Assembly: GCF_029227855.1 (NCBI RefSeq)
Contig: NZ_CP074356.1
Length of the DNA stretch: 64,000 nucleotides
Strand: one strand, 5' to 3'
Source: Escherichia coli
Lineage (GTDB): Bacteria > Pseudomonadota > Gammaproteobacteria > Enterobacterales > Enterobacteriaceae
Shown here: positions 43,000-49,401 of the stretch, in pieces
Layout of the letters: each line of letters starts with the position of its first letter
Position numbering within the stretch: position 1 is the stretch's first letter
Made by a program: the position numbers and the translations under genes
Notes under the pieces: model-generated
Told to the model about the DNA's origin: nothing
Database searches by the model: none
What the model saw: only the letters and a program-made list of their open reading frames with translations

Positions 43000-43191
43000 T
43001 TAAAATCCTGCCGGGATTTCGTTATTATCCTGGTGAATAACTTTATCGACCGGATAACAGTTGCCTGGAATTTTCTGTTCGGTTGCTGCTGCCATACATT
43101 CCTGCATTGTTCTGTGAACACTGACTGCAATATCAACTGGCTCTCCGGAAACAAGAAAAACCGTCAGAATAAGTGCAAATACTGGATTCAT
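43000..43191 (-). CDS. ydfD: YdfD-like small lysis/membrane protein
   Basis: Internal start MNPVFALILTVFLVSGEPVDIAVSVHRTMQECM... (63 aa); start overlaps the dicB stop. Confidence 0.6.
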   Translation of the reverse strand: MNPVFALILTVFLVSGEPVDIAVSVHRTMQECMAAATEQKIPGNCYPVDKVIHQDNNEIPAGF

Positions 43192-43376
43192 TGTGCACAT
43201 CCTTTTGGCATCAGACGTAAACGGGCCAGCATTGAAACAATGCATACTTTATTTAATAACTCCCGTTCGTGTTTTCTTTTGTTAATGGCCTCTTCAGTAA
43301 ATACAGGATTACTGATAGTGACACCAATTTCAAAACAACCTTCAGACGTATTAACGTTTGGTAATAACGTTTTCAT
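43188..43376 (-). CDS. dicB: Cell-division inhibitor DicB
   Basis: 62-aa ORF MKTLLPNVNTSEGCFEIGVTISNPVFTEEAINKRK... essentially matches the Qin prophage DicB as recalled. Confidence 0.8.
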   Translation of the reverse strand: MKTLLPNVNTSEGCFEIGVTISNPVFTEEAINKRKHERELLNKVCIVSMLARLRLMPKGCAQ

Positions 43377-43943: not shown

Positions 43944-44162
43944 CTAACGCGGGTATGTAATCATTCTGGCAATGCTTAATGCCGCTGCTTTTTCCAGATT
44001 GGTGATATCCTGCTCCAGAGCGGACAGATTTTCAGCCTGCTTAGCCCTGGCTTCATTAGCCCATTTCAGATCCTGCGCTGCATTAATTTTCTGGCGCATC
44101 CACTCATAAAGTTCATCATCGGTATAGTCTGGCGCGATGATGACGGGTTCTCGTTTCTGCAC
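43944..44162 (-). CDS. ydfC: YdfC-like prophage protein
   Basis: 72-aa ORF in the ydfA-ydfB-ydfC-dicF-dicB arrangement. Confidence 0.55.
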   Translation of the reverse strand: MQKREPVIIAPDYTDDELYEWMRQKINAAQDLKWANEARAKQAENLSALEQDITNLEKAAALSIARMITYPR

Positions 44163-44191
44163 GCTGATTCCTCGCGGTGCTGTTTCGCTTA

Positions 44192-44320
44192 TCAGCCGTT
44201 AGATTTTGCCGAACTGGAAAGCGCCTGTTTAAATTCGCTGAAGCTGAGAGCTTCTTCGCCTTCGGCAAGGCCTTCGAAGTATTCTTCGTAAGCCTTTTCC
44301 ATGATTGTGTCGAAATCCAT
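44192..44320 (-). CDS. ydfB: YdfB-like small protein (42 aa)
   Basis: Hand-translated ORF MDFDTIMEKAYEEYFEGLAEGEEALSFSEFKQALSSSAKSNG; below track size cutoff. Confidence 0.55.
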   Translation of the reverse strand: MDFDTIMEKAYEEYFEGLAEGEEALSFSEFKQALSSSAKSNG

Positions 44321-44321
44321 A

Positions 44322-44477
44322 TCACCCACCTGAATTTCTTTCCAGCCAGCGACGCGCTCCAGATTCGGTTTTAAACGTTTTGCTTTTGGTATACGTCATT
44401 GCGGTGAAGGTGCCGTCCTGGTTGGGAAACACGCCGTACACCAGAGATTCGTTGTTGCCAAGATCGATAGTATCCAT
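44322..44477 (-). CDS. ydfA: YdfA-like small protein (DUF1391-like, 51 aa)
   Basis: Internal start MDTIDLGNNESLVYGVFPNQDGTFTAMTYTK within track ORF 44322-44558. Confidence 0.6.
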   Translation of the reverse strand: MDTIDLGNNESLVYGVFPNQDGTFTAMTYTKSKTFKTESGARRWLERNSGG

Positions 44478-44774
44478 GCTGACCTCATTTCCCCTTAACG
44501 CCGGGGTAGCGGAACAAAAACCTGCTGCATAGTTATTAAAGTTGAACCCTGCCGTCATGTTCTTACGCCTCGGGCTGGCTACTTAACCCCTGACCACTGC
44601 CTGGTAACTCGAAGTATTGCCCTGCATTCTGTGGGGCGGGGTGGGTGGTAGGTATATAATGTACTTTTCGTTCATTGTTGTAAAGTACTTTTAGTACATT
44701 TTGTGTGTAAAAAAATGAGATGGGATAAAGTGAAGCACAAACCCGGAGGAAGGCGCTACCGGATTTATGCTGGT

Positions 44775-45194
44775 TTAAGAGGCTTTTTGTTTTTTCTTTC
44801 GTGCTAACTCTTCGTAAATTGCATTGTACTTCTGTTTTTTCTCTTCAAGAGTTTTTAAAAGTTCATCTGTCTCACTGTCAGGGAGCTCGTCCAGAAGGTC
44901 AATGATGATTTTTTGTCTTGGATTTAACTCCTGATAGAAACGTACCTGTCCACTTTCTTCTGTATCCTCTCCCAAAAGATAGGTTGGTGTTGTTCCTATT
45001 AGTGTTGCTAATTCCCTTAATTTCTCCCGGCGAGGAATTGTTTCGCCATTAAACCATTTGCTAACCGCTTTTGGTGTTAATTTCATTCGACGGGCAATTT
45101 CTGCCTGCCTTCCATGTTGTTCATAACCAGCGTTTTCACAGGCTAGCGCAAGCCTACTGGCGAACTCTTTACGCGCTTTATCTTCATGAACCAT
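44775..45194 (-). CDS. Prophage repressor (XRE-family HTH; DicA/RacR/CI-like)
   Basis: 139-aa ORF with HTH (GRQAEIARRMKLTPKAVSKWFNGE); divergent from cro-like gene; same direction as the leftward dicB operon. Confidence 0.7.
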   Translation of the reverse strand: MVHEDKARKEFASRLALACENAGYEQHGRQAEIARRMKLTPKAVSKWFNGETIPRREKLRELATLIGTTPTYLLGEDTEESGQVRFYQELNPRQKIIIDLLDELPDSETDELLKTLEEKKQKYNAIYEELARKKKQKAS

Positions 45195-45273
45195 AAGTTC
45201 AATGATATTCGCTCTTGAATGTACTGTCAGTTCTGTTATAGCATGTACTCAAAGTTCACATTGTGAGGGTGAT
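45195..45273. promoter_or_regulatory. Putative immunity-region operator/promoter interval between repressor and cro-like genes
   Basis: Short divergent intergenic region with repeated ATGTACT(G/C) motifs. Confidence 0.4.
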
Positions 45274-45528
45274 ATGAACCAGAAAACACTTGAAGATGTA
45301 ATCAAAACTGTTCGCGTTGCTGTTGTGGCCGACGTTTGTGGTGTCAGCCAAAGAGCAATCTATAAATGGATGGATAACGGAAAATTGCCTCGCACAGAAT
45401 ATACCGGCGAAACAAATTACGCTGAAAAAATCGCTCTTGCATCAAACGGATTATTTTCTGCCGATGCAATTTTAACTATTGGCAGGAATAAAACTACTAC
45501 GAAAAAGCTGATGGGAGTTGATTCATGA
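45274..45528 (+). CDS. Cro/YdaS-like HTH protein
   Basis: Internal ATG (MNQKTLEDVIKTVRVAVVADVCGVSQRAIYKWMDNGKLP) within track ORF 45202-45528. Confidence 0.6.
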   Translation: MNQKTLEDVIKTVRVAVVADVCGVSQRAIYKWMDNGKLPRTEYTGETNYAEKIALASNGLFSADAILTIGRNKTTTKKLMGVDS

Positions 45529-45950
45529 AAATCAAGCATGAACACATCCGCATGGCGATGAATGCCTGGGCGCATCCGGACGGCGAAAAAGTACCGGCTG
45601 TGAAAATTACCAAAGCGTATTTCGAGCTGGGAATGACGTTCCCGGAACTGTATGACGACAGCCATCCGGAAGCCCTGGCTCGCAATACTCAGAAAATTTT
45701 CCGCTGGGTGGAGAAAGACACCCCTGATGCGGTTAAAAAAATTCAGGCGTTGTTACCAGCTATCGAAAAAGCAATGCCACCTCTGCTGGTGGCCCGAATG
45801 CGCAGTCATAGCTCAGCCTATTTTCGGGAACTAGTGGAGACGCGGGAACGACTGGTGAGAGACGCTGATGATTTTGTCGCAGTGGCGATCGCTGGTTTCA
45901 ACCAGATGAATCGTGGTGGCCCTGCAGGAAATATTGTGGCTGTGCATTGA
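45525..45950 (+). CDS. YdaT-like prophage protein
   Basis: 141-aa ORF translationally coupled to the cro-like gene, in the YdaS/YdaT arrangement of Rac-type prophages. Confidence 0.5.
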   Translation: MKIKHEHIRMAMNAWAHPDGEKVPAVKITKAYFELGMTFPELYDDSHPEALARNTQKIFRWVEKDTPDAVKKIQALLPAIEKAMPPLLVARMRSHSSAYFRELVETRERLVRDADDFVAVAIAGFNQMNRGGPAGNIVAVH

Positions 45951-46015
45951 CTCGCAATATTCATACCGGATCACTTCCGGCAATTTGTGAGTAAAAAGAT
46001 TCGGTATCAAAAGAG

Positions 46016-47104
46016 GTGAGTATGGCTAACGCCTGGCTCAGATTATGGCATGACATGCCAAATGACCCTAAGTGGCGAACAATTGCCAGGGTGTCAGGGC
46101 AGCCAATTGCAACAGTGATGGCAGTGTATATCCACCTCCTGGTGAGCGCGTCACGAAATGTCACGCGAGGTCACATTGATGTCACGACAGAAGATTTGGC
46201 AAGTGCGCTCGACGTGACAGAAGAGGTAATTGATTCAATTTTGCAGACGATGCAGGGGCGGGTACTTGATGGTGATTTAATCACTGGATGGGAAAAACGC
46301 CAGGTGCTTAAAGAGGACAACGGCAATATTTCGCAAACCGCAAAATCTCCTGCAGAGCGCAAGAGGGCGCAGCGAGAGAGGGAAAGAAAGCGGGAACAAA
46401 ATGGCGATTGTCACGGCGCGTCACGAAATGTCACGCACATGTCACGACGAGTCACGACAGATAAAGATACAGATAAAGATACAGATAAAGATACAGATCA
46501 AGAAGATCAAAACACTATGGTCCATGGCGTAAAAAACGCCACGAACCAGGCAGGGGATGTTCAGACCGTCAATCTTGGTCAGCCAGCAGGCACGACACCG
46601 GAAGCCGATTCAGCGTATGCGCTGAAAGCCGATTCGGGCGCTGTGCAGCAGGTGATGACCGCAAGGCCGGAGCAATCACACCAACTGCAGCAGCCCGAAG
46701 CCGATTCCGCCATTCAGCGGGAAGCCGATCGGGTAGTCCCGGAAAACACCGGGCAGTCTGTGGGACGAGTGGATTATCCGGATGTGTTCGAACAGGTCTG
46801 GCGGGAGTACCCGTTGCGTGCCGGAGCAAACCCGAAGAAATCCGCTTTCAGTGCCTGGAAGGCCAGATTACGCGAGGGGGTGCCACCAGAGGCCATGCTG
46901 GATGGCGTGAGGCGTTACGCAAGATACTTGGCGGCTACCGGGAAAACGGGAACGGAATTTGTTCAGCGAGCGACGACGTTTTTTGGACCGGACCGGAATT
47001 TTGAGAACCCCTGGTTGCTCCCGGTAAGCGGCACGAACAACCAGCGTTGTGTGAATCATATTTCTGAACCGGATAACGAAATTCCGCCGGGCTTCAGGGG
47101 GTAA
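46016..47104 (+). CDS. Putative phage replication initiation protein (O-like) containing internal iterons
   Basis: 362-aa ORF with N-terminal HTH-like region, low-complexity middle (DKDTDKDTDKDTD) and two clusters of GTCACG direct repeats inside the coding sequence. Confidence 0.55.
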   Translation: MSMANAWLRLWHDMPNDPKWRTIARVSGQPIATVMAVYIHLLVSASRNVTRGHIDVTTEDLASALDVTEEVIDSILQTMQGRVLDGDLITGWEKRQVLKEDNGNISQTAKSPAERKRAQRERERKREQNGDCHGASRNVTHMSRRVTTDKDTDKDTDKDTDQEDQNTMVHGVKNATNQAGDVQTVNLGQPAGTTPEADSAYALKADSGAVQQVMTARPEQSHQLQQPEADSAIQREADRVVPENTGQSVGRVDYPDVFEQVWREYPLRAGANPKKSAFSAWKARLREGVPPEAMLDGVRRYARYLAATGKTGTEFVQRATTFFGPDRNFENPWLLPVSGTNNQRCVNHISEPDNEIPPGFRG

Positions 47105-47144
47105 GTGTTAATTTCTGGTCATGAGGTAATTTTCAGGAGGGCTT

Positions 47145-47567
47145 GTGGCAAAAGTTTTTACACAAGAAGAGCGGGAAAAAATTAAAGGGCAGGTTGTTGA
47201 ACTCGTACGCCAGAGTGGGCGCGAGACGTTACGACAACTGGAAACTAAAACTGGGGCAACAAGATATCTGATGAGCGTTCTGGCCAGAGAGCTGGTTGCC
47301 AGTGGCGATGTATACAACTCTGGTTACGGGTTATTCCCGTCTGAACAGGCGCGTAAGGACTGGCAAAATGCCCGTAAAAAGCTCTCAAGGGCAAAGCCGA
47401 AGAAACCATCTGCGGTTGATCCGGACCTAATCTGGTCATTACCAGACGGAGAAATACGCCGCTACGACAGGCGCCTGAATATAATCTGTCGCGAGTGCCG
47501 GAAGAGCGAAGCTATGCAGCGTGTACTGGCTTTCTATCAGGGTAATTTTCAGGAGGCGGTACTGTGA
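47145..47567 (+). CDS. Hypothetical prophage protein (140 aa)
   Basis: Track ORF; good spacing after replication gene; no family recognised. Confidence 0.5.
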   Translation: MAKVFTQEEREKIKGQVVELVRQSGRETLRQLETKTGATRYLMSVLARELVASGDVYNSGYGLFPSEQARKDWQNARKKLSRAKPKKPSAVDPDLIWSLPDGEIRRYDRRLNIICRECRKSEAMQRVLAFYQGNFQEAVL

Positions 47568-48074
47568 GTGAAATTAGCTATCAGGCTTCAATTGCCGCTG
47601 GCATTCGCATCAAAGGAGAGGAGCATGGAAATAAAACCAGAGGATTAGTTAAGCAATATCGTTTTATTTCCGATAAAAGAGGATGACCCTCGTAATCAGG
47701 TTAATTTTCTTTATGAGCCATCGGAAAGACCATATTGCCATCACGCTTCTGTCCGGGTTGACGAAAAAGAGCGTCAGGTCCGCTGTAAAATCTGCGGTGC
47801 AGTTGTGGAGCCATTTGACTGGATGCTCTCTGTGGCGAAAAGAGAAACCAGACTGGCAGATGATGTAAGGCTCTTGCGCCAGGAGGAACGGGAAAGGCGA
47901 AAAAATATAGAAAAGCTAATTCAGATTGAGCGTAACGGGAAAGCGCGGATACGCAGGGTGACAAAATCCAAAACTGAATAATTAAATTTAGCACTGTTAA
48001 AAATTTAATCCTTAACCGGAGGGATTTCTGCACCCTCAGAACAGCAGGAGGCCACCCGAAAGGGCGGTAGTGAA

Positions 48075-48257
48075 ATGCGAAAGTTCAAAATAATTATTGA
48101 AACGGGAATGGCTGGTGGAGATTTCGAGGATGAATTCGAAGTGGATGCTGATGCGACGCCTGATGAAATACATGACGAAGCAAAAGATATTTTCTTTAAC
48201 TACTGCAATTACTCATATCACGAAATAAAAGACGAAGAGGAAGAGCAAAATGGCTGA
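48075..48257 (+). CDS. Small acidic hypothetical prophage protein (60 aa)
   Basis: Track ORF, highly acidic; followed by two further coupled small ORFs (about 48250-48425 and 48423-48533). Confidence 0.4.
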   Translation: MRKFKIIIETGMAGGDFEDEFEVDADATPDEIHDEAKDIFFNYCNYSYHEIKDEEEEQNG

Positions 48258-49401
48258 TTTTGGTTCAACTAAATACAACGTCAGTTTTGAAAAATGGCAT
48301 GAACTGTTAATGGACTATGCAGAGTTACGTGGTGGCAGTGCTGCTGATGCTGAAGCATGGCGTGATGATTATGAAGCAGGAAAAAATCCGGTCGAAGCAT
48401 ATTGTGATGAGTGGGGCGATGAATGAGCGAGATTAATTATCAGGAAGGGTATGAAACGGCGGGGCAAGCAAAACCAGTGGCATGGCGATATCGCTACGTG
48501 AAAAAAGGCGTTACGGACTTTCAGGAGAAGTAGTGGTCTGTTGACTGGAAATATGTACCGAAAAAAGAGGATTGTAACGACAGGCCGAACTATCAAATTC
48601 AGGCCTTATTCACTGCCTCACCAGCCCTGGTTACATCAGAAGAACTGGTTAAAGCTGTGCACTTTTATGAACAACTAAAACGCGAAAATCCACCAACATC
48701 CGGCAACTAGATTAATGGGTTAACTATGTCGGTTAAACGACCAGCCAACTGAAAAAGCGGAAACCTGATTATAGGTTGCCAGATAAGGCAATAAGCTACC
48801 TGGCGCGGAACGGACTGATAAGTATGGGGAATGTTTTACGATGAACCTTTAGACTAAAGAGTTTGTAACGCTATGTAAGTGATTTTTTCTAGTTTAGATA
48901 TTTATATGTCCGGCCAAATTGAGGTGTGTTTAAATGTAATTGCACATTGATTGTAGGAGGAATAATGAAAAACGCATTGCAGTTTTTGTTTGTTGCGTTC
49001 TGGTTGTTCGTATCATGTATGCCCATCATCTTCACAGCAAGGTATATGGAAAAAGTTGATGTTTTGATATTAATATTTGGATATATAAATGCCCTTTTTT
49101 TAGGGGTGTTCATGGCGGTCATGTGCATTGAATACTGGCGGTAAATACAGCGAACTCCATTGGTTTAGTTGGATATTTATTGTGCTGGACAAAAACGGTT
49201 TGCGGGGAAATCTTAGTTAAGTAGAATGACTGCGGGTGCTTGAGGCTATCTGCCTCGGGCATGAACACCAACGGCAGATAGAGAAAAGCCCCAGGTAACA
49301 TTACGCGTCCTGCAAGACGTTTAACATTAATCTGAGGCCATATCTATGCGACACATAGAGATTAGCCTCTTACGGACCGAAAGGTCAAGGAGAAGCAGGC
49401 T

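Follow-up and report, generated by a model that had tools for sequence, protein, structure and literature searches.

The Escherichia coli DNA analyzed here (64,000 nucleotides (nt) of contig NZ_CP074356.1, hereafter "the window") carries a prophage whose replication initiator gene contains two arrays of short direct repeats (iterons) with the core GTCACG and, adjoining the second array, an A+T-rich, purine-rich tract. Judging from sequence comparison, this region is very probably the origin of replication of the prophage, located inside its own initiator gene and made of an iteron array and an unwinding element. An initial annotation of the window had taken the repeats as the probable mark of a prophage origin lying within the initiator gene, and this proposal gains support from selection on the repeats at the DNA level, from a layout found across the gene family, from the low stability of the adjacent tract, and from the co-occurrence of the arrays with the N-terminal domain (N-domain) of the initiator.

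The first array (array 1) contains three exact GTCACG copies on the plus strand, starting at 46150, 46160 and 46181, and a GTCACA variant at 46171, with spacings of 10, 11 and 10 nt. The second (array 2) contains five copies, starting at 46410, 46420, 46430, 46441 and 46451, with spacings of 10, 10, 11 and 10 nt. Within each array all units are direct repeats in one orientation, about one helical turn apart (10 or 11 nt). A single inverted copy (CGTGAC, 46213-46218) lies between the arrays, and a 19-mer, GCGTCACGAAATGTCACGC, is common to both (46148-46166 and 46418-46436, an offset of 270 base pairs (bp)). Behind array 2, Tandem Repeats Finder detects a 12-nt unit in 3.9 copies (46457-46503, 97% matches), which encodes TDKDTDKDTDKDTD. 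The initial annotation had described two GTCACG clusters with a shared sequence some 270 bp apart inside the replication gene, and a 12-bp tandem repeat behind the second cluster; both descriptions are confirmed by these coordinates. Its estimate of four to six repeats per cluster was correct for the lower figure (array 1 has four direct copies plus the inverted one) and not for the upper, as array 2 has five.

GTCACG is found at 42 sites in the window, compared with 25.8 ± 5.1 expected, and nine of these sites lie within approximately 310 bp. Eight copies of one hexamer in a gene of 1080 nt were reached in 2 of 2000 dinucleotide shuffles, a figure that does not count in the five successive spacings of 10 or 11 nt. 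No further GTCACG cluster phased at 10-11 bp was detected elsewhere in the window.

A spacing of 10-11 nt shifts the hexamer through all three reading frames, in which it appears as TCA-CGA (S-R), GTC-ACG (V-T) and GGT-CAC (G-H). The iteron motif likewise occurs in all three frames within single genes in 42 of 58 homologs. The same gene provides a contrast, as GAAGCCGAT (once AAAGCCGAT) is found four times (46601, 46625, 46697 and 46721) with spacings that are multiples of three and in one frame only. This repeat (EADS/KADS/EADS/EADR), also present in phage 75/02 Stx, is a linker repeat at the peptide level.

When per-site variation was examined in 60 near-identical E. coli-type genes, the arrays were not clearly more conserved than the remaining N-domain, the divergence being too small. 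For this reason, codons for the same residue were compared between the window gene and the homologous gene of Pseudomonas phage phita81A (N-domain identity about 70%). Inside the iteron hexamers (inverted copy included) 17 of 18 codons were identical, while outside them the proportion was 33 of 77 (Fisher p = 4.7e-5); the codons of the inverted copy, GAC GTG ACA, are also the same in phita81A. Since codons for the same residue remain unchanged inside the hexamers, the synonymous sites of the iterons are selected as DNA. A separate observation concerns one iteron of array 1, whose invariant ACGC half overlaps the conserved T/E-R-G codons of amino acids (aa) 48-50 (ACG CGN GG / GAA CGC GG) in the window and in homologs; the conserved Arg-Gly of the winged helix and the constant half of the iteron may constrain each other.

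The layout was surveyed in 80 diverse viral contigs and 80 E. coli-type copies, from which 77 non-redundant N-domain homologs were counted. A scan of viral contigs with a query led by the window had returned only E. coli copies with 100% identity, and was repeated with an alignment made of distant sequences only. Arrays were detected by a simple NNNACG search in an upstream zone (nt 60-280 of the gene) and a linker zone (nt 290-520). Both arrays were present in 42 homologs, the linker array alone in 20 (62 linker arrays in total) and the upstream array alone in one. The initial annotation had held that absence of the repeats from homologous initiator genes would speak against an origin; such absence is not what the 77 homologs show. 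Pooled over these genes, 189 spacings between successive copies were of 10 nt and 48 were of 11 nt.

Seven motif types are found in these genes (CGAACG, GGAACG, GAAACG, GCAACG, GTAACG, GTCACG and GTGACG), all with the form of a variable triplet followed by a common ACG(C). The two arrays of one gene always have the same motif type, and at least 17 changes of type can be counted on a rough neighbour-joining tree. In about 2.5 kb of flanking DNA most loci have 0-4 copies of the motif, and none has more than 8. The upstream array is variable in position: most genes have it at nt 120-182, some at nt 67-107 and two at nt 148-274. In the E. coli plasmid record pMY504-2 (NZ_AP026904.1; locus L169, 1501-2995), array 1 has six units instead of four owing to a 21-nt in-frame insertion. 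This expansion and the lack of a fixed position look like selection for an upstream array wherever the coding sequence tolerates one.

Five phage relatives share only the N-domain with the window gene, and three of them have two arrays at equal gene positions: Pseudomonas phage phita81A (GTCACG), a spring-water podovirus (CGAACGC) and Ralstonia phage Firinga (GCAACGC). In a spring-water myovirus the linker array ([G/A/T]AACGC) is clear and the upstream one weak, and no evident repeats were seen in the Microcystis phage relative. Across 85 diverse array-bearing loci the N-domain is the sole protein feature in common; the C-terminal domain (C-domain) of the window's initiator is found in just one, and homologs of the neighbouring regulator genes (YdaT-like, Cro-like, repressor, Ren-like) in none. 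Two fairly close pairs of initiators from IMG/VR, L120/L131 and L111/L106, have iterons that differ by one base (GTCACG and GTAACG). Unusually long upstream arrays are also seen in the first pair, with nine same-strand copies in L120 and seven (plus four inverted) in L131, overlapping the region that encodes the helix-turn-helix.

The tract adjoining array 2 contains the least stable 40-mer of the gene (46459-46498), with a nearest-neighbour free energy of -42.4 kcal/mol compared with a regional mean of -54.3 (standard deviation 4.5); it is 75% A+T and, on the coding strand, 75% purine. A similar composition is common in the family. In the 50 nt behind the linker array, A+T content exceeds that of the gene in 57 of 57 homologs and purine content in 51 of 57, and the least stable 40-mer lies inside this segment in 48 of 57. 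In 38 of 57 genes a YAGAKA motif (such as CAGATA, TAGATA or CAGAGA) begins no more than 14 nt from the last iteron, most often 0-3 nt from it, and is usually followed by (ACAGAT)n, (ACAGAG)n or (GAGAA)n repeats. Elsewhere in the genes that carry the tract motif, YAGAKA occurs once per approximately 3,550 nt; behind array 1, such a tract is found in 0 of 38 genes. The copy number of the tandem repeat is polymorphic among E. coli strains, with gene lengths of 1068, 1080 and 1092 nt.

Other sequences around the tract were also considered. Two of the four GATC sites present in 45900-47200 are located at its distal end. The inverted repeat that comes next (46518-46548) folds as single-stranded DNA with -8.7 kcal/mol (z -2.7), and its minus strand is terminator-like; it is kept in the replication gene of Shigella phage 75/02 Stx, with which only the C-terminal module is shared. 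Visual comparison of the tandem tract with the DnaA box consensus TTATCCACA showed no fit, and the possibility that its units are DnaA boxes was discarded. An Rfam scan of 44000-49000 gave no match.

Over the entire protein, the initiator is matched by PHROG 3729 (E 4e-256, "replication initiation protein"), and over the C-terminal half by profiles with the label "DnaD-like helicase loader". In E. coli genomes, PGAP names the identical span "phage replisome organizer". The gene is present at a coverage of at least 80% in 1646 of 5426 complete E. coli genomes. The N-domain is confidently assigned as a winged helix, most like the N-terminal domain of DnaD in its predicted structure, with a sequence identity of about 8% to Bacillus subtilis DnaD. 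Pfam Phage_rep_O, the N-domain of lambda O, does not match the initiator or 75 N-domain homologs even at E <= 10. In turn, Phage_rep_org_N (the family of SPP1 G38P) gives a weak match over residues 5-123 (model 1-119 of 121; E 0.022-0.25); among the 75 homologs it matches one at E <= 0.001, the best value being 2.5e-5. The initiator can be classed as a replisome organizer of DnaD-like fold, with a probable distant relationship to SPP1 G38P, and the label "O-like" given to it by the initial annotation is appropriate by analogy and wrong by homology.

Array 2 and the tract encode aa 130-165, past the winged helix and a basic helix and within a low-confidence, disordered segment (131-253) of the AlphaFold2 model. 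The model was computed for the whole protein from six sequences and, with a mean predicted local distance difference test (pLDDT) of 50, was used solely to delimit the disordered linker.

The last 20 or so residues of the initiator, QRCVNHISEPDNEIPPGFRG, are nearly identical to the end of E. coli DnaT, EPDNEIPPGFRG being the aligned stretch here. The DnaT profile NF002770 (NCBIfam) scores 19.1 bits against a cut-off of 201, and the aligned part comprises solely residues 337-360 (DnaT 156-179). The protein is not DnaT, as its remainder is unlike DnaT and the score falls far below the cut-off. Homologs are often annotated "primosomal protein I", a name that the tail probably explains. In the preprimosome, DnaT uses its C-terminal domain to dock on PriA and to assemble into filaments along single-stranded DNA; the study that describes this names no partner of the extreme tail (PMC13377028). 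The resemblance suggests mimicry of a host primosome contact, presumably a handle for host helicase-loading or primosome proteins. A short tail of similar character is seen in a small open reading frame (ORF) at 43000-43245 on the minus strand, of the DUF1482 family in E. coli genomes, which ends in ...HQDNNEIPAGF. Its acidic-IPxGF end may be a second carrier of a short docking motif or a coincidence.

These features can be accommodated in a model of initiation. The DnaD-like winged-helix domain at the N-terminus would bind the 10-11-bp units through their GTCACG core, all on one face of the helix. The five-unit linker array would nucleate an initiator oligomer beside the tract, the weakest duplex of the gene, which would then melt under negative supercoiling. 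Array 1, together with the inverted copy, 260-270 bp upstream, might act as an auxiliary block that brings in more initiator and permits looping or wrapping of the DNA between; alternatively, it might be a copy-control site or a fork barrier. The C-domain, ending in the copy of the DnaT tail, would recruit the helicase-loading machinery of the host. Four parts of this model are inferred: the reading of the iterons by the N-domain, melting at the tract, the function of array 1 and the host protein contacted by the tail.

Several points weigh against the interpretation of the region as an origin. The literature yielded no description of an origin or of GTCACG iterons for this family, and no binding, unwinding or replication experiment. 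The data establish three things, namely the anatomy of the region, selection on its repeats, and co-variation; binding, melting and recruitment are proposed from them. Fourteen of the 77 homologs have no array by the NNNACG search, so that the layout either is not universal or has diverged in those genes. When mutual information between residues and motif type was calculated, the top alignment columns were those encoded by the arrays, and the columns of the recognition helix did not rise above the phylogenetic background. Because the arrays themselves encode the best-correlated residues, the recognition helix is not picked out by this analysis. Lastly, frame 0 accounts for 302 of the 450 GA[TGA] triplets of the tract. 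The conservation of the tract is thus not purely a DNA signal, since the acidic (D/E)(T/K/R) linker that it encodes imposes a constraint as well, and the DNA-level and protein-level constraints are inseparable here.

An alternative that we consider improbable is that the arrays bind the initiator for purely regulatory ends, and that opening and helicase loading take place elsewhere in the prophage. Such a role could be autorepression by roadblock, copy control by titration or handcuffing as in P1 incA, or a fork barrier that sets off the theta-to-sigma switch, a function proposed for oriR of SPP1. Two separate arrays are reminiscent of iteron plasmids, which have bipartite control arrays, and array 1 lacks an A+T-rich partner. 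In SPP1, G38P bound at its second site, oriR, has been proposed to stall forks (PMC6316719). Two observations argue in the opposite direction: array 2 adjoins a tract of low stability, which is the signature of an opening site, and the window offers no other phased GTCACG cluster that might serve as an origin. A regulatory role for array 1 alone may well be true and is compatible with an origin in this gene; for array 2 it is unlikely.

Binding of the repeats by another protein, either a host factor or an activator of the cII/YdaT type that might drive an antisense promoter in the gene, has a very small probability. The idea is not without grounds. The reverse complement GTGACA resembles a -35 hexamer, there is a weak promoter-like match on the minus strand (46434-46407), and lambda cII recognizes direct repeats one helical turn apart (TTGC-N6-TTGC). 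However, the promoter and terminator scan gave no excess over shuffled sequence, with three promoter sites found and 3.8 expected, and an antisense promoter in array 2 was rejected as the main explanation on this account. The remaining motif types do not resemble a -35 hexamer, and the candidate regulators do not accompany the arrays in the diverse loci mentioned above. A host factor is disfavoured because the motif changes with the phage lineage, within and across hosts, while phages of E. coli and Pseudomonas with 70%-identical N-domains share GTCACG.

The weakest alternative, to which we give almost no credence, is that the repeats are by-products of coding or slippage (peptide repeats or a low-complexity linker) with no role as DNA: the 12-bp tract is indeed translated into a repetitive acidic linker, its copy number varies among strains as slippage predicts, and the separate in-frame GAAGCCGAT repeat lies downstream, but the GTCACG units occupy all three frames and hence make no repeated peptide, their synonymous sites are frozen, and an equal layout with other motifs recurs in distant genes. 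The three-frame distribution and the phita81A codon test exclude such an artefact for the GTCACG iterons.

A broader and more speculative proposal can also be formulated, which taken as a whole we regard as possible and rather doubtful. The family would share an undescribed bipartite design, with one array placed inside the coding sequence of the winged helix, so that a change of specificity forces a change in the protein. The triplet of NNN-ACGC would have been switched in at least seven ways, many times, with both arrays changing in concert. The YAGAKA/(ACAGAK)n tract, 0-3 nt behind the last iteron, would be a sequence-specific single-strand element for the DnaD/DnaT-like C-terminal part, analogous to DnaA-trios or to the DnaD recognition element.

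The features of the region are collected in the table below. The early region has the order of Rac/Qin-like lambdoid prophages: a DicA-like repressor, a Cro-like gene, a cII/YdaT-like gene, the initiator and a Ren-like/DUF977 gene, with hokD, rusA and Q further on. No P-like, DnaC-like or DnaB-like gene is found next to the initiator in the window, the next gene being the Ren-like/DUF977 one. Together with the mimicry of the DnaT tail, the absence of a loader gene nearby suggests a testable route by which a phage initiator may enter the host primosome.

Table. Features of the initiator gene and of the candidate origin within it (positions in the window).
Feature	Position	Strand	Details
Replication initiator gene ("phage replisome organizer", 360 aa)	46022..47104	+	ORF list, PHROG 3729, PGAP; ATG at 46022 after AGAGGTGA
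N-terminal winged-helix coding region (aa 1-93), presumed iteron reader	46022..46300	+	Helices 16-25, 29-45, 56-63 and 67-77 (recognition helix); wing 82-87
Iteron array 1, putatively auxiliary	46148..46190	+	Codes for aa 43-56: end of helix 1, loop, first strand of winged helix
Inverted iteron copy	46208..46219	-	Codes for L-D-V-T, turn of the helix-turn-helix
Iteron array 2, proposed core origin array	46408..46458	+	Codes for aa 130-146, disordered interdomain linker
A+T-rich, purine-rich tract, putative DNA unwinding element	46457..46515		(ACAGATAAAGAT) x3.9, then CAAGAAGATCAAAAC; codes for acidic TDKDTDKDTDKDTDQEDQ linker
Two GATC (Dam methylation) sites, 9 bp apart	46496..46508		Distal end of the A+T-rich tract
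Imperfect inverted repeat (hairpin)	46518..46548		TGGTCCATGGCG-TAAAAAA-CGCCACGAACCA, directly 3' of the A+T-rich tract
DnaT-like C-terminal tail	47042..47101	+	QRCVNHISEPDNEIPPGFRG; alignments to PDB 9zbt_D, 2ru8 and 6aep

Exchange of modules is seen on both sides of the linker. In locus L169, the tandem tract is the junction between the N-domain of the window, with both GTCACG arrays, and a different C-domain, annotated "DnaT-like ssDNA-binding domain" (ssDNA, single-stranded DNA), and a gene for lambda "replication protein P" comes next. Conversely, Shigella phage 75/02 Stx and phage mEp460 have the C-domain of the window combined with N-domains unrelated to that of the window, each with different linker repeats of its own. 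Comparison of these genes places the recombination junctions at the linker and tract, with the modular logic of lambdoid O genes. A search of a plasmid collection for the gene as a replicon matched solely very large or chromosome-sized records, which are uninformative on autonomous replication.

The initiator gene is very widespread in E. coli. It belongs to Rac/Qin-like lambdoid prophages, for which an origin has apparently never been defined. A known origin would provide a handle on prophage induction and on "onion-skin" replication, and would be relevant to cross-talk or incompatibility where prophages that share an iteron type reside in one cell. Cloned arrays are possible initiator decoys or vector parts. 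In addition, homologous winged-helix domains and seven iteron variants that differ in three bases make a compact system for the study of DNA reading and of co-evolution between initiator and origin; the close pair L120 (GTCACG) and L131 (GTAACG) is good material for the search of residues that determine specificity.

Among known systems, an obvious reference is the origin of lambda, in which four 18-bp iterons and an A+T-rich stretch of 38 bp lie inside gene O (PMC3349717). The likeness resides in the position of the origin in the initiator gene, between the DNA-binding N-domain and the helicase-loading C-domain, in the order of iterons and A+T-rich tract, and in the exchange of modules at the same junction. 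The differences are several. The N-domain of the window's initiator has no homology to that of lambda O; the units in the window gene are a 6-7-bp core every 10-11 bp, direct within each array, instead of four 18-bp iterons; a second array is present 260 bp upstream, inside the region that encodes the DNA-binding domain; and a P gene is missing from the window, while the L169 variant, with its other C-domain, does have one. Membership in the lambda O family thus fails on homology, on iteron form and on the partner gene.

Another parallel is SPP1, whose oriL lies inside gene 38 and combines direct repeats bound by G38P with an A+T-rich unwinding element, a fragment of 356 bp being necessary and sufficient in vitro; G38P also has a second binding region, oriR (PMC5737612, PMC6316719). 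As in SPP1, the initiator is a non-AAA+ protein of the DnaD-like/replisome-organizer type, the layout in the initiator gene is that of oriL, and there are two separate putative binding regions. In contrast, sequence similarity is below the family threshold, oriR is intergenic and some 13 kb away while the second array of the window lies 260 bp away in the same gene, and SPP1 encodes the loader G39P and the helicase G40P, neither of which is found beside the initiator gene of the window prophage.

Resemblance to host proteins is more limited. B. subtilis DnaD serves its host as an adaptor that DnaA recruits, and reading of phased duplex iterons is not among its known activities; the likeness to E. 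coli DnaT is confined to the last 20 or so residues, the rest of the initiator being unrelated. Lactococcal phages provide another comparison: TP901-1 (ORF13) and Tuc2009 (rep2009) have essential direct repeats in their replisome-organizer genes, and the cloned origin titrates the initiator, an effect called "phage-encoded resistance". Their hosts and repeat sequences are different, and a bipartite layout is not known from their origins. Altogether, the element in the window is of the expected kind, and departs from these systems in its short 10-11-bp units, in a second array within the coding region of the DNA-binding domain, and in a conserved purine-repeat tract.

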